Source: a virus
Length of the DNA: 64,000 bases
Virus record (IMG/VR): IMGVR_UViG_3300034111_001103
Coordinates: 1-64,000 of that record
Strand: one strand, 5' to 3'
The stretch's first letter is position 1. Each line of letters begins with the position of its first letter. Shown here piece by piece: positions 23,436 through 43,762 of this stretch. Made by a program: the position numbers and the translations under genes. The notes beneath the pieces were generated by a model. The model saw only the letters and a list, made by a program, of their open reading frames with translations. It did not search any database and was not told the DNA's origin.

Positions 23436-24455
23436 ATGGTAAAAGAACAAGTAATAACAGAAAATTATGCAATATACAATAGCGATTGTATGTTAGTATT
23501 ACCTACACTAGAAAATGAAAGTATTGACTTATCAATATATAGCCCCCCTTTTGCAAATCTTTATACATATTCAAGTTCAGAACGTGATATGAGTAATGTT
23601 TCAAGTAATGAGGAGTTTTTTACTCAATATGAATTTCTTGTAAAAGAGATGGCAAGAGTTACAAAAAATGGTAGAATTAACGCTATCCATGTTACTGATT
23701 TGTTTAAATATAACGGTGCTTTAAGCGATTTTCCGGCTGATATAATTAAACTACATGAAAAGCATGGTTTTACTTATATGAGCCGAATTACAATATGGAA
23801 AGAACCATTAAGAGTAAGGCTTAAAACTATGGTACAGTCTTTAATGCACAAATTTATAGTTGAAGATAGTACCAAGAATTACCCAGCAATGCCTGACTAT
23901 ATTTTATTATTTAAGAAAAAAGGAGATAATAAAGTACCCGTAACTCATCCGTTTGGATTTACACACTATGCAGGCACTACGCCAATTTTACCTGAAACTG
24001 TTGGTATTTATAACCGTGCAAATGACACAGATTTTAAAAATGGTGCTGATTTATGGGAATATATTTGTAAAAAATATGAAAACCATAAAGAAGCAGGAAC
24101 AAACAAAAAAAGTCATATTATTTGGCAAAGATACGCGTCAGCAGTATGGGATGATATAAGGGCGGAAAATTGCCTACCTTATAAAGATTCAAAAGAAGAC
24201 GATGACGAAAAACATATTACACCTACTCAATTAGATGTTTTAGATAGAATAGTAGATTTATATTCAAATCCTAATGAGGTTGTGTTAAGTCCTTTTATGG
24301 GATGCGGTAGTGATGTTTTTAGTCCTGTTTCTATGGGTCGTAAAGCTATTGGTATTGAGTTAAAAGATAGCTATTTTAAACAAGCTAAATTGAATTTAAA
24401 AGAAGCTGAAAAACGATTTAATACCTATAAATTAGAAAATTCTTTACTATTTTAA
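23436..24455 (+). CDS. DNA N4-C/N6-A methyltransferase (beta class)
   Basis: YSPPF catalytic motif N-terminal, VLSPFMGCGS SAM motif C-terminal. Confidence 0.9.
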   Translation: MVKEQVITENYAIYNSDCMLVLPTLENESIDLSIYSPPFANLYTYSSSERDMSNVSSNEEFFTQYEFLVKEMARVTKNGRINAIHVTDLFKYNGALSDFPADIIKLHEKHGFTYMSRITIWKEPLRVRLKTMVQSLMHKFIVEDSTKNYPAMPDYILLFKKKGDNKVPVTHPFGFTHYAGTTPILPETVGIYNRANDTDFKNGADLWEYICKKYENHKEAGTNKKSHIIWQRYASAVWDDIRAENCLPYKDSKEDDDEKHITPTQLDVLDRIVDLYSNPNEVVLSPFMGCGSDVFSPVSMGRKAIGIELKDSYFKQAKLNLKEAEKRFNTYKLENSLLF

Positions 24456-24608
24456 TTTGCAAAATCAAATATTATTTATTACTTTTGCAGTAAATCCACA
24501 AATCAATGTACAATTTTATTAACAATATAGCACCTGAAAACACATACCTCCGTATGTGGGTTAGTGGATTATCCAGAGGGTGCTTTTTTTCTTTAAAAAA
24601 TCCACTAA
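24456..24608 (+). promoter_or_regulatory. Promoter plus structured leader of replication initiator
   Basis: TTTG (24456) and TACTTTTG (24480); hairpins CACATAC/GTATGTG and AGCACC/GGTGCT+T-run; TTAGTGGATT complementary to AATCCACTAA abutting the ATG. Confidence 0.6.
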
Positions 24609-25385
24609 ATGGCTAAAAGATTTACAGATACTGAATTATGGGATAAAGAATGGTTTATGACCTTATCTTTAAAGCAAAAATGTATAGTCAAATTTATTCG
24701 AGATAAAGCTGATTTATGCGGTGTTTGGTCGCCTAATTTTGTTATTGCATCTGCTTATATAGGTGAAAAAATAACTGAAAAAGACATATTAACAATAGAT
24801 AAAGGAAATCAATTTAGAAAATTAGATAATGGTAAAATTTATTGCATTGGATTTGTTGAATTTCAATATGGAAATATTTTGAGCGAAAAAAGTCCAATTC
24901 ATAAAAAAATTATTGGATTATTAGAAAATAATGGAATTTTAGAAAATTACAAGAAAGACTATTTATACCCTATCAATAGGGTATCAAATACCCTGCAAGA
25001 AGAAGAAGAAGTAAAAGAAGAATATAAAGTAAAAGAAAAAGAAGAAGTAAAAGAAATAAAACTTGCAAAAATTGAAAAAAATGAAATTGAACTACTTTTT
25101 GATGAATTTTTAAAGATGCGAGTTAAGATAAAAAAACCTGCTACTGATAAAGCTATTGATTTATTAAAAAAGAAACTCAATGAATTATCTGGTGGAAATG
25201 AATACAAGGCTATAAAAATAATTGAGCAATCAATAGTTGGTGGATGGCAGGATTTTTATGAATTAAAAAATGATACTAATACTGAAAGTAAAATAAGTAA
25301 GCTCAAATCAGTTTCAGACGAACTAGACATAAAATTAGGAATAAGCCAAAATAATCAATTAAAAACAAATGAGCAGAGTAATTAA
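24609..25385 (+). CDS. Phage replication initiator
   Basis: MAKRFTDTELWDKEWF N-terminus, E/K-rich linker, C-terminal IIEQSIVGGWQDFY. Confidence 0.75.
   Translation: MAKRFTDTELWDKEWFMTLSLKQKCIVKFIRDKADLCGVWSPNFVIASAYIGEKITEKDILTIDKGNQFRKLDNGKIYCIGFVEFQYGNILSEKSPIHKKIIGLLENNGILENYKKDYLYPINRVSNTLQEEEEVKEEYKVKEKEEVKEIKLAKIEKNEIELLFDEFLKMRVKIKKPATDKAIDLLKKKLNELSGGNEYKAIKIIEQSIVGGWQDFYELKNDTNTESKISKLKSVSDELDIKLGISQNNQLKTNEQSN
24965..25060. other. Candidate replication origin inside initiator gene
   Basis: ATACCCTAT-CA-ATAGGGTAT palindrome plus third ATACCCT, followed by an A/G-rich tract. Confidence 0.4.
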
Positions 25386-25719
25386 ATTTAGAGCTTGGTC
25401 AAAAGAAGCAGAAAAAATGAGTGATTGGGATTTTATCCATTCAGTTAGAAACCTTCATAAACTTATGACATTAAATCATATTGAATTAATGCAATTCACA
25501 GGACTTACTGATAAAAACGGAAAAGAAATTTATGAGGGGGATATTATTAAGTATTATGACAGAATTTCACAAATTAATTATAGTGATTTATATGCTTGTT
25601 TTATTATGTATAGTGAATTTGATAAACAAAGTTTTTCTTTATGTGGTTCTATAAATGATTCCAAAAGAGACTTAGAAGTAATTGGAAACATATTTGCAAA
25701 TCCAGAATTAATAAAATAA
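25369..25719 (+). CDS. yopX: YopX family protein
   Basis: IKFRAW, LMQFTGLTDKNGKEIYEGDI, LEVIGNIFANPEL. Confidence 0.92.
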   Translation: MSRVIKFRAWSKEAEKMSDWDFIHSVRNLHKLMTLNHIELMQFTGLTDKNGKEIYEGDIIKYYDRISQINYSDLYACFIMYSEFDKQSFSLCGSINDSKRDLEVIGNIFANPELIK

Positions 25720-25720
25720 T

Positions 25721-26461
25721 ATGAAATATCAAATTAAAGAAATTAAAGAATTTATTTTAAGATGCTATGCAAGTGCAGGGCAAAATTCAAATAGTGAGGA
25801 CGCAGCACTTTTAATAAATCTATTTTGTAGAGAGGTTGAAACGAATTGGAAAAGACATATAAGAATTACAAACAAAGGTCAAGAAAATGAAAACTGGAAC
25901 TTGAATGAGATATTTTACTTCATTGACTTAGGATTATCTAAAGTGTTTGGCGATTACTTTGGGATTAATTTAATCACTTTTAAGCAATTTGAACACGCTT
26001 ATAGCAAAAATGAAAATAGTTATTACAGAAAGCAATATTTGCTTAAGAATCCATTGCCAGTATTAGAAGCAATAGAACAACATACAGAAAGTGGCAAAGA
26101 TGAAATAGTAATTGATGCAATGATAAGTAAGCTAAAATCAAAGAATTATACAGATGCCGATTTGAATGTTTGGTATGACTTTTTAGAGCAAAAAGGAGCA
26201 ATAAAATTAGATAGATGGAAACAATATGAAACGGATGGAGCTGAAAAATACACACAGGAGTTACACAAACGCTCAAATTTTGCACAAAATAATAATTTGA
26301 AGGATTTATATAATGAAATAAAAAAAGCATTAGATTTGGCAAAAGAATTAAAATATGATGTAATTGAATTAGCTTACCACTCAAAGGTTCATTTTATGGA
26401 ATTAACTTTTTGCACAGATGAAAATATTAATAAACTAGAAACTTTTTTAAAAATTAAATAA
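25721..26461 (+). CDS. Hypothetical protein (replication module)
   Basis: 246 aa ORF in operon. Confidence 0.6.
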   Translation: MKYQIKEIKEFILRCYASAGQNSNSEDAALLINLFCREVETNWKRHIRITNKGQENENWNLNEIFYFIDLGLSKVFGDYFGINLITFKQFEHAYSKNENSYYRKQYLLKNPLPVLEAIEQHTESGKDEIVIDAMISKLKSKNYTDADLNVWYDFLEQKGAIKLDRWKQYETDGAEKYTQELHKRSNFAQNNNLKDLYNEIKKALDLAKELKYDVIELAYHSKVHFMELTFCTDENINKLETFLKIK

Positions 26462-26466
26462 ACTAA

Positions 26467-26646
26467 ATGGAAAAAGAACTCAAAGAACTTTTAAAGCTAA
26501 AAGAAAATGTAGTAAGATGGAATATGTGCGCTGAACTCGATGAAAGGCTAGGAGTAGACCCAACTAAATCAAATGAAAGTGCATTGTTTTACGAGCAGGA
26601 ATTGAATAGTAAATTGAAAAAGATTATTGAAACTTATGGGAAATAA
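26467..26646 (+). CDS. Hypothetical 59 aa protein; stop codon is the TAA of the first attC-like TAAC
   Basis: MEKELKELL...IIETYGK; not in ORF track. Confidence 0.55.
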   Translation: MEKELKELLKLKENVVRWNMCAELDERLGVDPTKSNESALFYEQELNSKLKKIIETYGK

Positions 26647-26762
26647 CGCCTACGGCTTGGCGAAGTTGCCGTATTCCAAATGCCAAATTGAAAAACAAAT
26701 GATAAATTTTAGTACAAATGTTAAATAGTAGTACAGAACGGCAATTTAGCCAAACCGATGTT
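26645..26762 (+). repeat. attC-like site 1 (118 bp AAC to GTT)
   Basis: AAC-GCCTA-CGGCTTGGCGAAGTTGCCGT ... ACGGCAATTTAGCCAAACCG-AT-GTT; 17/20 complementary. Confidence 0.8.
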
Positions 26763-27440
26763 ACAGGAAGCCCTTTTAGAGTGCTTAATCTTTACGCTTG
26801 TTTAGGTGGTAACAGATATAAATGGACTGATTGCGAAGTTACAGCAGTTGAATTAGATAGTGAGCTGGCACGAATGTATCAAGAGAGATTTCCAAATGAT
26901 AAAGTGATAATAGCAGATGCACACCAATATCTACTTGAACATTATAAAGAATTCGATTTCATTTGGACTTCGCCACCTTGCCCAAGCCATAGCAGAGTAA
27001 GATTTACACAAAAAAATAAAGACTTTTATAATCCTATTTACCCGGAAATGACTTTGTATCAAGAAATCATTTTTTTAGAAAATCATTTTGAAGGTAAATA
27101 TGTAGTTGAAAATGTGATACCATACTATGAGCCTTTAATAACTGCACAACAAAGAGGAAGGCATTTATATTGGTGCAATTTTAAATTACCTAATAATATT
27201 GATAGAGAAGAATTAAAAGGATTAGTTGGTGGGAATACAAAATATGAAGTAAAAAAACTTTGTAAGCTACACGATATTGATATTGACTTTTTAAAATCGT
27301 ATAAAGGCGAACAAAGATTAGATAAAGTGATTAGAAATCTTGTTGATTATGAAGCTGGCTTAAACATTTTCAATACAGCAAGAGGAATTATTAATAGGTC
27401 AAATGTTAAAAGTCCTTCACTCTTTGATGGTGTCTTTTAG
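26718..27440 (+). CDS. DNA (cytosine-5) methyltransferase-like, cassette 1
   Basis: VLNLYACLGG, WTSPPCPSHS, VVENV; first 14 codons lie inside attC-like site 1. Confidence 0.85.
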   Translation: MLNSSTERQFSQTDVTGSPFRVLNLYACLGGNRYKWTDCEVTAVELDSELARMYQERFPNDKVIIADAHQYLLEHYKEFDFIWTSPPCPSHSRVRFTQKNKDFYNPIYPEMTLYQEIIFLENHFEGKYVVENVIPYYEPLITAQQRGRHLYWCNFKLPNNIDREELKGLVGGNTKYEVKKLCKLHDIDIDFLKSYKGEQRLDKVIRNLVDYEAGLNIFNTARGIINRSNVKSPSLFDGVF

Positions 27441-27450
27441 GGTTTCCTGT

Positions 27451-27574
27451 AACGTTTGAGAATATGAGAAGTGGCGGGAAAAAAGGTTTGTAGTACCGAG
27501 TGTAAATCTGAAACCTTGAAATACCCATTAAGCTCGACAGTAGCCACTCTTAGCCATTTCTTATATTCTTTGTT
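27451..27574 (+). repeat. attC-like site 2 (124 bp)
   Basis: AAC-GTTTG-AGAATATGAGAAGTGGC ... GCCATTTCTTATATTCT-TT-GTT; 15/17 complementary. Confidence 0.8.
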
Positions 27575-27597
27575 ATAAAATCGTTTTAATGTTTTAT

Positions 27598-27721
27598 AAC
27601 GTAAAATAATAAAAGCAGTAGCGATATGAAAGAACAAATTGAAAATATATTGATAAAGGTTGATGAAGGCACGATGCCTGTTCAACAAGCACTAAGCGAG
27701 CTATTGCTTTTATTTAGTGTT
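27598..27721 (+). repeat. attC-like site 3 (124 bp)
   Basis: AAC-GTAAA-ATAATAAAAGCAGTAGC ... GCTATTGCTTTTATTTA-GT-GTT; 14/17 complementary. Confidence 0.8.
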
Positions 27722-27877
27722 AGCGGTTCGTTGCCATCTATTGACCCATTAGATGACGAGAATAGCGAAATACATAAAATAGGTAGAGAAATAGCTGAAA
27801 TGTCCGATGAAGAGTTTGATAATAATTGTAAAGCAATAACAGATATGCTGTCAAGGTCGAAAGGCAATGACCGCTAA
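27626..27877 (+). CDS. Hypothetical protein: 31 codons from attC-like site 3 fused to cassette 3
   Basis: ATG in hairpin loop, GTT = Val32, stop is the TAA of the next TAAC. Confidence 0.7.
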   Translation: MKEQIENILIKVDEGTMPVQQALSELLLLFSVSGSLPSIDPLDDENSEIHKIGREIAEMSDEEFDNNCKAITDMLSRSKGNDR

Positions 27878-27997
27878 CGTATGGGTATTGGCGAAGGGCA
27901 AGAATAGTAGTACCGATGTTCAACCTTTGCACAATGCTAAATAGTAGTACAACTGCTCAATTTATTACTTCTGCTTGCCTTTTGCCAATACATTGTT
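27876..27997 (+). repeat. attC-like site 4 (122 bp)
   Basis: AAC-GTATG-GGTATTGGCGAAGGGCAAG ... CTTGCCTTTTGCCAATACA-TT-GTT; 16/19 complementary. Confidence 0.8.
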
Positions 27998-28071
27998 GTA
28001 CGCTGTTTTTCTTTGGTATTCAGTACTTTACAAAGTATCTAAAAATAAATAATAAAATTTTAATAAAATTA

Positions 28072-28102
28072 TTTGGAAATTAAAATAAATGTTGTATATT
28101 TG
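28072..28102 (+). promoter_or_regulatory. Promoter internal to cassette 4
   Basis: TTTG (28072) + 19 nt + TATATTTG (28095). Confidence 0.65.
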
Positions 28103-28145
28103 TACTTGATAAGCAATTAAGCATATCACTAAAAAAAATAAAAAA

Positions 28146-28331
28146 ATGACAGCAAATTCAGTAGTATCAAGAGAAACATTCAATAATGATTTGAATAATT
28201 GCTTAACTATTTTAAGCAACTTGACAGAAAAAGAAAATATAAAAAGTGAAACTTATACTTACTACAAATGTGAGTATATATCTCCTGCGTTATACAAAAA
28301 AACAATAATTGTAGCTGTTTATGAAAATTAA
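28146..28331 (+). CDS. Hypothetical protein, cassette 4 gene 1
   Basis: ORF after internal promoter with A-rich leader. Confidence 0.6.
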   Translation: MTANSVVSRETFNNDLNNCLTILSNLTEKENIKSETYTYYKCEYISPALYKKTIIVAVYEN

Positions 28332-28479
28332 GAAAAAAAGCCCTGCTGGTAGAAAGCCTGTTGAAGATAAAAAAGTGGTTGTAAACTTATTTATTCGTCA
28401 GTCAGAATTAGACAAACGAGGTGGCAAAGAAGAAGTCCAAAAGTCTTGTTATGAGTTTTTGGGTGTGTCCGCAAAATAG
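28321..28479 (+). CDS. Small DNA-binding (RHH-like) protein, cassette 4 gene 2
   Basis: MKIKKKSPAGRKPVEDKKVVVNLFIRQSELDK...; stop TAG inside the cassette's right inverted repeat; not in ORF track. Confidence 0.6.
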   Translation: MKIKKKSPAGRKPVEDKKVVVNLFIRQSELDKRGGKEEVQKSCYEFLGVSAK

Positions 28480-28532
28480 CGTACAACTAGTAGATTGTAG
28501 AAATTAATTGTACAATAAAACATTAATTATCA

Positions 28533-28751
28533 ATGCAAATTTATACAAAATGGATAGCTTATGATGGATTAGTAGGAGTAACTGAAATTTACGAATACTA
28601 TGATTTAACAACTTGCAAAAGATTAATTAAAGAAGTGCATCAAGGCTCAATTTACTATAGAGAAAATGGAAGTAAAAAAAGGTATTCTTTTAACAAAATA
28701 AATAAAACTAAGAAATTAGAAAAAATTGAAATTATTAATTTACCATTTTAA
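28533..28751 (+). CDS. Hypothetical protein
   Basis: ORF in operon. Confidence 0.55.
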   Translation: MQIYTKWIAYDGLVGVTEIYEYYDLTTCKRLIKEVHQGSIYYRENGSKKRYSFNKINKTKKLEKIEIINLPF

Positions 28752-28762
28752 AATAAATAAAA

Positions 28763-29059
28763 ATGAAACTATCAAAACCAACAACTGCACTAACAGAGGT
28801 GCTTTATGAACTGCTCACAAAGAAAAGTATAAGCAATGCAGATTTGCCTTATATGTGGGGTTTCCGTTCAAGAATAAGCAATTTAACTACTAAGTATGGT
28901 ATTCAGTTAAATTCTACTATGATAACTGCTAAAAATAAGCATGGTAGAGCTTATTCATACGTACAACATCAGTTAATGAAAAGAAAAGATGCTTTAAAAA
29001 CCTATAATAAACTTATAGGAAATGAAAAAAAAGAAATTATCAAATATTTTAAAAAATAA
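28763..29059 (+). CDS. Winged-HTH protein
   Basis: GFRSRISNL..KYGI...KNKHGR pattern. Confidence 0.55.
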   Translation: MKLSKPTTALTEVLYELLTKKSISNADLPYMWGFRSRISNLTTKYGIQLNSTMITAKNKHGRAYSYVQHQLMKRKDALKTYNKLIGNEKKEIIKYFKK

Positions 29060-29124
29060 CCGATAGGGTATAAAATCGTACTAAATCATATAATTAACAC
29101 CCTTTAGGGTACAAACTAAAACAA

Positions 29125-29775
29125 ATGAAACAAGAAAATTACTCACAAGTTAAAATGATAGGAGAATGGCTTATCAGAGGTCGCAAGAATGGACAAGAAT
29201 ATAATATAGACCATTTTATAAATGATGTACACTTAGTATTCAATAATAAATTAAGTCCAGATATACTAGTTTTTGAACAACATATAGACTATCTTATACA
29301 TCTATGTTGTATTGAATTTAATTGCACTATTGATGAAATAAAAGGCAAAACAAGATTAAGACACATAGTATTAGCTAGACATATTGCAATGTATATACTA
29401 AAAATGAATAGAGCAGGAACGCTTTATGCTATTGGTAAAATGTTTGGAATGCGTGACCACTCGACTGTTATTCATGCTTGTAATCAAATAGAAGTATTAT
29501 TAGACTTAAAAGATACTGGGTACTTGCATTATTTGAATATCTTAGAAAAATTCAATGCTTATATAGGAGAAGAACAAATACAAGTAGATGAGAATACTGA
29601 AATACAAAAACCTGTTGTAGCGTTCCCTATTGATAATTTAAAGTATGATATTATGGATAAAATTCAGTACATCGAAAATTTAAATACAAAGGATGTTGAA
29701 ATAAAAAGAATGACTGGTGTTGAAAAATCTACCTATGAAAATGTACTTGAAATGATTAAAAATAATGAACAATAG
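29125..29775 (+). CDS. DnaA C-terminal HTH domain protein
   Basis: RLRHIVLARHIAMY...IGKMFGMRDHSTVIHA. Confidence 0.85.
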   Translation: MKQENYSQVKMIGEWLIRGRKNGQEYNIDHFINDVHLVFNNKLSPDILVFEQHIDYLIHLCCIEFNCTIDEIKGKTRLRHIVLARHIAMYILKMNRAGTLYAIGKMFGMRDHSTVIHACNQIEVLLDLKDTGYLHYLNILEKFNAYIGEEQIQVDENTEIQKPVVAFPIDNLKYDIMDKIQYIENLNTKDVEIKRMTGVEKSTYENVLEMIKNNEQ

Positions 29776-30028
29776 GCAACTATACTACCAAGCTAATAAA
29801 GAACAAATAAAAGCAAAGCAAAAGGAATGGAGAGCTAAAAATCCAGACTTAGTATATGCTAGTAAAGTTCATTTTAGAGCTAAGTATCAAAAAGAATTGC
29901 ACGATATTTACATTAAGGAAGTGCTAGTGAATAGAAAAGGATACAAACGCTCTGAAATAACTCCAGAACTTATCGAAATTCAAAGAAATATTATAAAACT
30001 AAGTAGATATGCTAAACGAACTAAATAA
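29765..30028 (+). CDS. Hypothetical basic protein
   Basis: YYQANKEQIKAKQKEWRAKN repeat-like motif. Confidence 0.55.
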   Translation: MNNRQLYYQANKEQIKAKQKEWRAKNPDLVYASKVHFRAKYQKELHDIYIKEVLVNRKGYKRSEITPELIEIQRNIIKLSRYAKRTK

Positions 30029-30212
30029 AGCCTTATTAGGGCAAATAAAGAAAATTGAATCTGAAAAGAATTTAGATACAGAGGTGTTAAAATCAAAAGA
30101 AATTTGTAGGTTGAGCAATCAAGTTATAAATTTGCATAAGTTAAATTTAGAAGCGCAAAAGCTGGAAAATTTGGGAGATGTGAAAGTATTGCATGAATTT
30201 TTTAAAAAGTAA
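30009..30212 (+). CDS. Hypothetical helical phage protein
   Basis: Overlapping ORF in operon. Confidence 0.55.
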   Translation: MLNELNKALLGQIKKIESEKNLDTEVLKSKEICRLSNQVINLHKLNLEAQKLENLGDVKVLHEFFKK

Positions 30213-30475
30213 ATTCGTGATTCGCGAATTGCGAATTGTAGGATAAAATACTCATAGATAGGTTATAAATTCTACAATGATGCTTAATATCTACATAAAG
30301 GTAAATATAGTAAGTAATAATCAACAAATTTCTAAAAAATAAAATGAAACAACTATATAATTACATCATCACAAAAATAGCTTTTTACTTATATGCAGGA
30401 AAAGACAATAAAAAACTAACTGCCGAAAGTTTTGCAAAGGCTATTAAATTCTGCGAAAAACATCAAAAATAAAAT

Positions 30476-30877
30476 ATGCAAATAAATAATATTAAAAAAG
30501 AAGATGTAAAAAAGATATATAGTGATGCTATCTTAAATTCTTATAGTCATCATATAGATATATTCGACCCCAAAAAACACTACAACAGAAGTCCATCAGA
30601 TATAGGATTTAAAGAATTTTTAGATATGTTTTCAAAAGAAAAATTTAAACATATAACAATAATATACAGAGAAGCTAGAACCGATTGGGAGTATGAGCAT
30701 TGGGAGTTTGGTCTGTGTAATACTAGTGTCTATCTAAACATCAAAGTATCCTTAAAACAAGCTGAATTAATTTTTAAAAAATACAATTTAACATACCCAA
30801 AATGCAAGTGCAATATATCTAATACTGAATTTGTACAAATGTGTGATAAGTGCATAGATACTATTAAGCTAGGTTAA
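30476..30877 (+). CDS. Hypothetical protein with C-terminal CxC...CxxC
   Basis: ORF 133 aa. Confidence 0.55.
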   Translation: MQINNIKKEDVKKIYSDAILNSYSHHIDIFDPKKHYNRSPSDIGFKEFLDMFSKEKFKHITIIYREARTDWEYEHWEFGLCNTSVYLNIKVSLKQAELIFKKYNLTYPKCKCNISNTEFVQMCDKCIDTIKLG

Positions 30878-30912
30878 GATATAGTAATAAATATCTTTTC
30901 AGTTTTACTAAT

Positions 30913-31434
30913 TTATATTTTTTTGCTTTCCATTCCAGTAACACTACACCAGCTATAACCTCTTTTTATATCTGATATAGTAGGAATAGATATATTATAT
31001 TTTTTAGCAATTATACTATATTTTGAATTATCTTTAAATATTTCCAACACTTTGTTATTCGTTAATTTAGATTGACTATTTTTTTCTCCTTTTGCTGACC
31101 TAAGTCCTATTTTTATAGCATGTTTTTGATTTTCACTTTGAGTATTCCATTCTAAATTTTCAAGTCTATTATCACTCTTTAATCCGTTAATATGGTTTAC
31201 TTGTGGCTTTGATGATTTATTATCTATAAATGTATTAGCAATCAATCTATGCACTAAAAATCGTTTAACTTTTTTATCTTTTACCAAATCAACAGCATAA
31301 TAACCAAAAGTTACTTTTATAGGTTTTAATATCCTAGTGCCTTTTCTTGTTTTTTTAGGTAAACTAATAATATCTCCATTTGAACATGCTGAATATAATC
31401 CCTCATATCCAGTAATTTGTTTAAAAATATTCAT
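30913..31434 (-). CDS. NUMOD4-HNH homing endonuclease
   Basis: FKQITGYEGLYSACSNGDI, VHRLIA, VNHINGLKSDNRLENLEW. Confidence 0.92.
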   Translation of the reverse strand: MNIFKQITGYEGLYSACSNGDIISLPKKTRKGTRILKPIKVTFGYYAVDLVKDKKVKRFLVHRLIANTFIDNKSSKPQVNHINGLKSDNRLENLEWNTQSENQKHAIKIGLRSAKGEKNSQSKLTNNKVLEIFKDNSKYSIIAKKYNISIPTISDIKRGYSWCSVTGMESKKI

Positions 31435-42937: not shown

Positions 42938-43762
42938 TTAAAGTTTATACCAATTAGTTCCGTCTGTTACAAATTCAAATGCTTTATCATTTCCTGTATA
43001 ATCATAATGAGTAGCACCATCAATATTGCTCCCAGATTGTGGATTAATTATAATATTATGATTTTTTGATTTTCTTTTTATAATAATTCTTGCAGTCATG
43101 CCATTAAAAAACATTTCAGATGCAATTGGCAAAGTTATAGTTTTGCTTGATGCAGAATTATCAACGATTGTAATCGATGCACAACTAGAAGCATTTAATG
43201 TAGTATTAGAGTTTATAACCTCAATAGATGTTGCATAGAATCCATTTACTTGTAATTTTGCTTCATTTGTAGTAGTTTCAAAGTTATCTATTCCAATAGC
43301 AGTTTTACCATTTTTAAGGATTGTAAATGCGTCTGATGGATTGCCACTTCCACCATTACCTACTACTAATAATCTATCTGTTGGCTCAAATGAAGTTGCG
43401 GATATTGGAGTATAGTCTGTATTTAAAGAACCTAATGATGTTTCTGAAAATGATTTTGCAGTTGTTTCAGTCCCCATTGCAGTAGAATAATCCCCACTAG
43501 CAATAGCACCTAGACCACTCATAGCTATACTATTTAATCCTGCAGCACTTTGAGGAGTAAAAGTTCCTGCATCATAGTTTTCAGAATATAGGTAATAAGA
43601 ACCTCCTCCTCCATTATTAACCCATTCTCCTTGTTGATTTAAAACAAGATCAGGATCTCCAGTAGTACTAGATATACCAAGACAAGCTCGAAGATAGCAA
43701 CAAAGTTTATTCCATCTACTTTCTAGTTTTTTTACTCTACTTTCTAATTCAAATAATCCCAT
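42938..43762 (-). CDS. Fibre protein with YadA/Hep-Hag-like head repeats; hybrid across the A/B junction
   Basis: ASGDYSTAMGTETTAKS, DRLLVVGNG..SDAFTILKNG; N-terminal ~54 aa differs from the 1..517 copy. Confidence 0.8.
   Translation of the reverse strand: MGLFELESRVKKLESRWNKLCCYLRACLGISSTTGDPDLVLNQQGEWVNNGGGGSYYLYSENYDAGTFTPQSAAGLNSIAMSGLGAIASGDYSTAMGTETTAKSFSETSLGSLNTDYTPISATSFEPTDRLLVVGNGGSGNPSDAFTILKNGKTAIGIDNFETTTNEAKLQVNGFYATSIEVINSNTTLNASSCASITIVDNSASSKTITLPIASEMFFNGMTARIIIKRKSKNHNIIINPQSGSNIDGATHYDYTGNDKAFEFVTDGTNWYKL
43351..43609 (+). repeat. Direct repeat copy 2 (partner 1-259); junction between phage A and phage B
   Basis: Same alignment, offset 43,350 bp. Confidence 0.97.

Follow-up and report, generated by a model that had tools for sequence, protein, structure and literature searches.

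Classical integron attC sites, acted on by IntI integrases such as the class 1 IntI1 and the Vibrio VchIntIA, carry AAC...GTT core boxes that pair as an R box and an imperfect hairpin with an L box that is a weak copy of the R box, together with an unpaired centre and a variable terminal loop (Bouvier 2009, PMC2727003; Nivina 2016, PMC5027507). One strand is favoured by nucleotide skew, the start of each cassette is complementary to the inverse core of its own site, crossover is at the AAC of the folded strand, and the arrays lie next to a tyrosine recombinase and a constant attI site. Recombination of this kind, in which the recombinase reads DNA shape rather than sequence, is thought to need the IntI-specific domain and extrahelical bases. 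Clusters of attC sites lacking an integrase (CALINs) occur in phage genomes, and the closest described example is Polaribacter phage P12002L, a Flavobacteriia phage in which DNA methyltransferase genes lie between attC-like sites and no integrase is present (Qi et al. 2023, PMC9892861). Only two sites were recognised there using classical attC models, and one of these, P12002L_attC1, gave no recombinants with IntI1.

Given an initial annotation of four hairpins sharing a G·T mismatch at arm position 13, we analysed a 64,000-nucleotide window, comprising positions 1 to 64,000 of the 168,934-bp IMG/VR virus record IMGVR_UViG_3300034111_001103, and compared it with other viral and bacterial loci. 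The hairpins are attC-like sites that bound small cassettes, and the G·T pair is a hallmark of a large, essentially undescribed family of such sites in Bacteroidota phages and chromosomes, most likely read by a Xer-like recombinase on folded single-stranded DNA. The sites share the R box, the weak L-box copy, the unpaired centre, the variable loop and the cassette-end complementarity of classical attC sites. They differ in having no single extrahelical bases, the asymmetry instead being a 3–4-nt excess in the spacer on the AAC-bearing arm plus G·T wobbles at base pair 11 of both arms, and in having an R arm of 11–15 bp, not 7. The same G·T-type sites were found on the minus strand of P12002L, and P12002L_attC1 is the short TCGTTTTAATG-loop member of this family. 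The long G·T hairpins, the wobble, its R-arm twin and the Xer-like recombinase were not described in that study, and our literature searches found no description of the system.

Architecture of the hairpin array

The record has 29% G+C, and its nearest cultured relatives are Flavobacterium siphoviruses. Bases 1–121 are identical to 43351–43471 and close relatives are contigs of 42–43.5 kb, and the array therefore lies in a roughly 43-kb phage genome that the record joins to other DNA. Four long imperfect hairpins are found between 26633 and 28487, with AAC at 26645, 27451, 27598 and 27876. Each reads, from the + strand, TAACG, a 5-nt spacer, a 19-bp stem with a 67–73-nt loop, a 2-nt spacer and GTT. 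The features of the region, all on the + strand, are as follows.

26461–26463: left boundary AAC of the variable region, overlapping the stop codon of the 246-aa backbone gene.
26467–26646: 59-aa ORF (unit 0), flanked by AAC on both sides and lacking a hairpin; its stop codon TAA is part of TAAC.
26633–26774: site 1; ext+TAAC 26633–26647, spacer GCCTA 26648–26652, 5' arm 26653–26671 (G at 26665), loop 26672–26738, 3' arm 26739–26757 (T at 26745), spacer AT, GTT+ext 26760–26774.
26718–27440: cassette cargo, a C5 cytosine DNA methyltransferase (PF00145, E 2.4e-08), which can start at the ATG in the site 1 loop (26718) or at GTG 26781; enclosed by the 15-nt R-arm pair 26760–26774/27439–27453 with one T·G at base pair 11.
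27439–27586: site 2; ext+TAAC 27439–27453, spacer GTTTG, 5' arm 27459–27477 (G at 27471), loop 27478–27550, 3' arm 27551–27569 (T at 27557), spacer TT, GTT+ext from 27572.
27572–27600: empty cassette of 29 bp, consisting of GTTATAAAA, the cap TCGTTTTAATG and then TTTTATAAC; R-arm pair 27572–27580/27592–27600 matches 9/9.
27586–27733: site 3, the AT-rich member; TAAC 27597–27600, spacer GTAAA, 5' arm 27606–27624 (G at 27618), loop 27625–27697, 3' arm 27698–27716 (T at 27704), spacer GT, GTT+ext from 27719.
27626–27877: 83-aa ORF of unknown family (no Pfam hit), which starts in the loop of site 3, reads through the 3' arm and ends at the TAA of the next TAAC; R-arm pair 27719–27727/27870–27878 matches 9/9.
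27864–28009: site 4; ext+TAAC 27864–27878, spacer GTATG, 5' arm 27884–27902 (G at 27896), loop 27903–27973, 3' arm 27974–27992 (T at 27980), spacer TT, GTT+ext 27995–28009.
28010–28472: cargo of the last cassette, with small ORFs 28146–28331 (no Pfam hit) and 28321–28479.
28473–28487: terminal R'' arm (ext+AAC), complementary over 15 nt to 27995–28009 with T·G at base pair 11; it marks the right boundary of the variable region and no hairpin follows it.

The sequence after each GTT is thus complementary to the sequence before the next AAC, across the intervening gene, which is the signature of integron cassettes that pass through a circular form. Close relatives (loci L004–L007) share the backbone up to 26461 or 26648 and again from 28475 or 28485 and carry different units in between, so that the breakpoints fall at AAC. 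Homology with L005 and L006 ends at 26461, where a hairpin site starts at the same AAC in those loci, and resumes, as for L007, at 28475/28485. Unit 0 is present in L004 and L007 but absent from L005 and L006, and the site 3 type also occurs in L005 and L006. The methyltransferase has more than 590 viral homologues, and most of the 80 homologue loci examined carry no sites of this type, so the cargo is not tied to the sites.

The elements are intergenic, co-oriented with the genes and have GC-richer stems than the surrounding DNA, as ordinary terminators or repeats sharing a mismatch by descent might. This explanation was rejected: no terminator-like site is predicted, the loops are 67–73 nt long, no T-tract follows, and mean column identity among 30 diverse sites is only 62%, with all other stem pairs varying.

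Conservation of the G·T pair

The G lies exactly 18 nt after the C of AAC, and its T partner exactly 15 nt before the G of GTT, in all four sites. The context is G-A-A-G in three sites and G-C-A-G in site 3, and the 5-versus-2-nt spacer asymmetry described in the initial annotation is present in all four. We scanned for AAC, GTT and ungapped arm pairing with the G·T position left out of the score. Only these four places in the 168,934-bp record reached 14–15 of 17 Watson-Crick pairs, and five shuffles of the genome gave none at 14 or more. A general search for long inverted repeats found only three such elements in 169 kb, the fourth site being AT-rich.

To obtain a larger set of sites, we anchored the scan on GTT and let the left register float. 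Homologous sites were found in L004–L007, in P12002L and in other viral contigs, including a 39.8-kb near-complete phage with 15 sites and a 63.9-kb contig with 17 or more. A seed pattern (GGCGAAG-N65-95-TTTTGCC) used on viral contigs gave mostly chance matches, with true arrays in only five loci, and the seed sites were flagged and the statistics repeated without them. Of 64 unique hits, 54 have G·T, while the other ten have odd offsets or lengths, or stand alone, and look like unrelated hairpins; G·T holds in 54/54 array-type sites from 12 or more viral contigs. TAACG is present in 52/54 and T before GTT in 54/54 of these sites, and T-GTT(A/G) occurs in all four window sites. Loops in the family run from 11 to about 75 nt.

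A second set, collected independently of site sequence through homologues of a recombinase found next to one array, gave 145 unique sites, of which 142 have G·T, one has G-C (in locus L243) and two have other pairs. The position is non-Watson-Crick in 144 of these sites, against at most 31% at any other stem position from d3 to d21, and the pairs on either side (d14, d16, d17) are 97–100% Watson-Crick with three or four pair types each. The initial annotation is corrected in one respect, as some other positions are also often wobble, namely arm position 10 (G·T in 19–48%) and position 8 (20–30%), while position 4 is C·A in 6–30% of sites. On a MAFFT alignment of 30 diverse 124-nt sites from phages and bacteria, 18 of 19 stem pairs show compensatory changes and the only stem pair that never varies is G·U (30/30). 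The covariation score is 0.72, against 0.17 in shuffles and 0.08–0.13 when the partners are slid. A further exception, T·T, is found in four sites of one bacterial array (L322).

Both bases are individually invariant, and Xer, Cre and lambda-type recombinases normally bind duplex arms, with the attI-like partner presumably also duplex. The G and the T might thus be conserved as separate base-specific contacts in two unequal duplex half-sites, and sequence alone cannot tell this from invariance of the pair. We consider this reading unlikely, however, since every flanking stem position keeps pairing through compensatory changes, which requires intrastrand pairing rather than sequence reading, since the R-arm partners lie hundreds of bases apart in the array and meet only across a hairpin in the circular form, and since one strand is systematically the better folder.

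Linkage to a Xer-like recombinase and an attI-like sequence

No tyrosine recombinase (PF00589) and no IS200/IS605-type Y1 transposase was found in the record, and the same is true of three relatives, two of which are 98% complete. The locus resembles a CALIN in this respect. In contrast, the 63.9-kb relative encodes a 265-aa tyrosine recombinase about 700 nt beyond the last site. Homologues of this protein occur in 44 viral loci, and in 36 of the 37 with at least 650 nt of upstream sequence an array of G·T sites lies directly upstream on the same strand. At that end a variable ext-TAAC is followed by a constant TATTATATATAC-type sequence 60–70 nt before the recombinase start codon, which looks like an attI and places the crossover at AAC on the G·T strand. 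No such sequence exists in the present record, where the right boundary, AAC followed by TAGTAGATTGTAG, only loosely resembles it.

The recombinase in relatives scores best to XerA, XerC and XerD models. It scores 159 bits, in two stretches, against the integron-integrase model TIGR02249 (cut-off 265), and is about 40 residues short in the region of the IntI-specific insert. The failure of P12002L_attC1 with IntI1 (PMC9892861) says nothing about the cognate enzyme. In phages the recombinase lies downstream of the array and co-directional with it, rather than divergent as in classical integrons. About 30 of 80 Bacteroidota genome loci, mostly Flavobacterium, that encode a 43–49% identical recombinase also carry arrays of uniform, roughly 124-nt G·T sites just past the 3' end of the gene. 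The family spans phages and chromosomes of several Bacteroidota families.

Whether each hairpin travels with its upstream or its downstream cargo gave a mixed answer. Breakpoints occur at both AAC and GTT, so the crossover point may not be unique, although the clean examples and both array ends favour AAC. A clean cassette of hairpin plus cargo is shared by two loci, L217 and L252, with unrelated flanks on both sides.

Arm symmetry, strand polarity and a proposed mechanism

We paired the GTT-ext of one site with the ext-AAC of the next, both belonging to the same cassette. In 194 cassettes this gives a 15-bp covarying helix, in which base pair 11, counted from the C:G of AAC/GTT, is T·G in 149 and Watson-Crick in only 7, with the T on the AAC strand present in 193 of 194. 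Pairing the two flanks of the same hairpin gives near-random values at the variable positions. Two of the window's cassettes, the methyltransferase cassette and the last cassette, show this T·G as the single mismatch in each 15-nt repeat. The consensus of the hairpin's outer stem is a degenerate inverted copy of the R arm, agreeing at nine of twelve positions when hairpin position d is set to R-arm index plus 4. Position 13 of the initial annotation is therefore base pair 11 of the L arm, and the two wobbles are related by the dyad expected of a tyrosine-recombinase core site. In both arms the T lies on the AAC-type strand, 10 nt 5' of the real or pseudo cleavage C. The folded site has two roughly 11-bp arms and a 7–8-nt centre on one strand, although these arms are formed by intrastrand pairing and no dif-like duplex site was found.

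The G·T strand folds better than its complement in 136 of 145 sites, by a mean of 3.0 kcal/mol with DNA parameters, which parallels the nucleotide skew that favours the recombined strand of classical attC sites (PMC5027507). In phage arrays the cargo genes lie on the G·T strand (102 against 2), whereas in bacterial arrays they lie mostly on the other strand (46 against 11), as confirmed by eye in locus L332. The phage arrays are thus a mirror image of the bacterial and classical layout with respect to cargo orientation. That the wobble-rich strand is the sense strand in phages, as is typical of G·U-rich RNA structures, and that start codons lie in the loops at 26718, 27626 and 27934, could suggest processing or translation-control elements in the phage mRNA. 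This appears improbable, as in bacterial arrays the mRNA would carry C·A mismatches, the sites are linked to a tyrosine recombinase and an attI-like junction, cassette presence and absence breaks at AAC, and a scan of 24000–31000 gave no relevant Rfam match. A secondary RNA role in phages is not excluded. The wobble follows the polarity of the site and its recombinase end, which fits a folded DNA strand cleaved at AAC on its 5' arm, as in attC bottom strands.

The model we consider probable is that each complete site, as it would exist in an excised circular cassette, folds from one DNA strand (the + strand here) into a tyrosine-recombinase core site. The R arm is an 11–15-bp helix of ext-TAAC pairing with GTTA-ext, followed by an asymmetric unpaired centre (5–6 nt on the AAC side against 2 nt on the GTT side) and an L arm forming the outer 11–13 bp of the hairpin stem, beyond which lie a dispensable inner stem and a large loop. 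We infer that a Xer-like recombinase dimer binds with one monomer on each 11-bp arm, and that the terminal wobbles together with the spacer bulge distinguish the correct folded strand from its complement, which would carry C·A, and from ordinary duplex DNA, which carries G-C and A-T. These features would set strand choice and polarity, the role played by extrahelical bases in classical attC sites. The comparative evidence supports the suggestion in the initial annotation that the mismatch and bulge are a landmark for a single-strand-specific recombinase and argue against terminators, although the enzyme in relatives is Xer-like and not IntI, and the asymmetry is a spacer bulge and not extrahelical bases. 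One strand would be exchanged at AAC with the attI-like site or with another hairpin, and replication would resolve the product as in integrons. Since this phage encodes no enzyme, activity here is unproven, and its array is either serviced in trans or is a static product of earlier exchange.

It is about as likely as not that Bacteroidota phages and chromosomes run an integron-like gene-capture system in which two dyad-symmetric wobbles, one at the outer end of each arm, replace the extrahelical-base code, so that only the correctly folded single strand is a substrate. Phages would use it, with inverted cargo orientation, to swap anti-restriction methyltransferases and other small early genes, with recombinase-less phages borrowing the enzyme in trans. 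If confirmed, this would be a second solution to strand and polarity choice on folded DNA, and a T 15 nt before GTT facing G would provide a signature for cassettes that current attC models miss.

The T is also kept at the same distance in the minimal sites and the empty cassettes. The TCGTTTTAATG cap occurs 72 times in 3.56 Mb of the loci examined, against 1.7 expected, and closes both minimal hairpin sites and the R arm of empty cassettes such as 27572–27600, an identical unit of which is present in loci L210, L225 and L233. In both settings the cap places its T at exactly the canonical distance, being base pair 11 from AAC in 10/10 such empty units. The arm evidently ends at the wobble, and what lies beyond is dispensable.

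Cap motif, loop repeats and reading frames in the hairpins
The 11-nt motif TCGTTTTAATG, observed at 27572-27600 in the window and also in the fetched loci L210, L225, L233, L011, L228 and L216, is a recurrent cap, with 72 copies found in 3.56 Mb of fetched loci against about 1.7 expected. The motif forms the loop of minimal TAACG...GTTA sites, including the published P12002L_attC1, and it also forms the whole "cargo" of empty cassettes whose flanking extensions covary.

The loops of sites 1, 2 and 4 carry TAGTAC / AATAGTAGTAC repeats, and the exact 11-mer occurs nowhere else in the 169-kb record. The repeats are positioned as follows:
26710-26734, loop repeats
27489-27496, loop repeats
27905-27913, loop repeats
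27942-27950, loop repeats
Loops of related 124-nt sites carry three to four spaced AGCAC/ACCAC repeats in the same places, with the last one positioned directly before the 3' arm. These repeats could bind an accessory factor, or they could be a promoter or leader element.

ORFs often start inside the hairpin loop and read through the 3' arm, as is observed for 40 of 102 phage cassettes. Examples are found at 26718, 27626 and 27934 in the window and at 2943 (minus strand) in the phage locus L206, and two of the window loops encode the same start, MLNSST. Additionally, the TAA of the TAAC box serves as the cargo stop codon in 16 of 102 phage cassettes, including two in this window.

Boundaries of the array and of the record
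At 26464-26647, a 59-aa ORF unit is bounded by AAC on both sides but has no hairpin of its own. The unit is present in the relatives L004 and L007 and absent from the relatives L005 and L006, and it could be a cassette that lost its hairpin or an element of another origin. The right boundary of the array (28485-28520), AAC followed by TAGTAGATTGTAG, loosely resembles attI-like sequences of relatives (AAC-TAGATTATATC in L244 and L246, and AAC-TAGTTTATAGG in the bacterial locus L332). No recombinase gene follows. It may be a decayed attI.

Bases 1-121 are identical to 43351-43471, and the next 138 bases differ at 9 positions (1-259 compared with 43351-43609). Relatives of the left part are contigs of 42-43.5 kb. 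The 169-kb record with terminal repeats is therefore probably a join of a roughly 43-kb siphovirus-like genome with other phage DNA.

Natural variants and bacterial arrays
Four 121-nt sites in one bacterial array, that of L322 (a Flavobacterium MAG), have T.T instead of G.T at the invariant position and are interleaved with normal G.T sites:
9529, minus strand, T.T site
11440, minus strand, T.T site
12865, minus strand, T.T site
16322, minus strand, T.T site
A Watson-Crick G-C is found at this position in locus L243 (637-720). Many of the bacterial contigs (among the genome contigs L261-L340) end within 1-2 kb of the recombinase gene, on the array side. This suggests that the repeated 124-nt sites break short-read assemblies, so that the arrays are under-represented in draft genomes.
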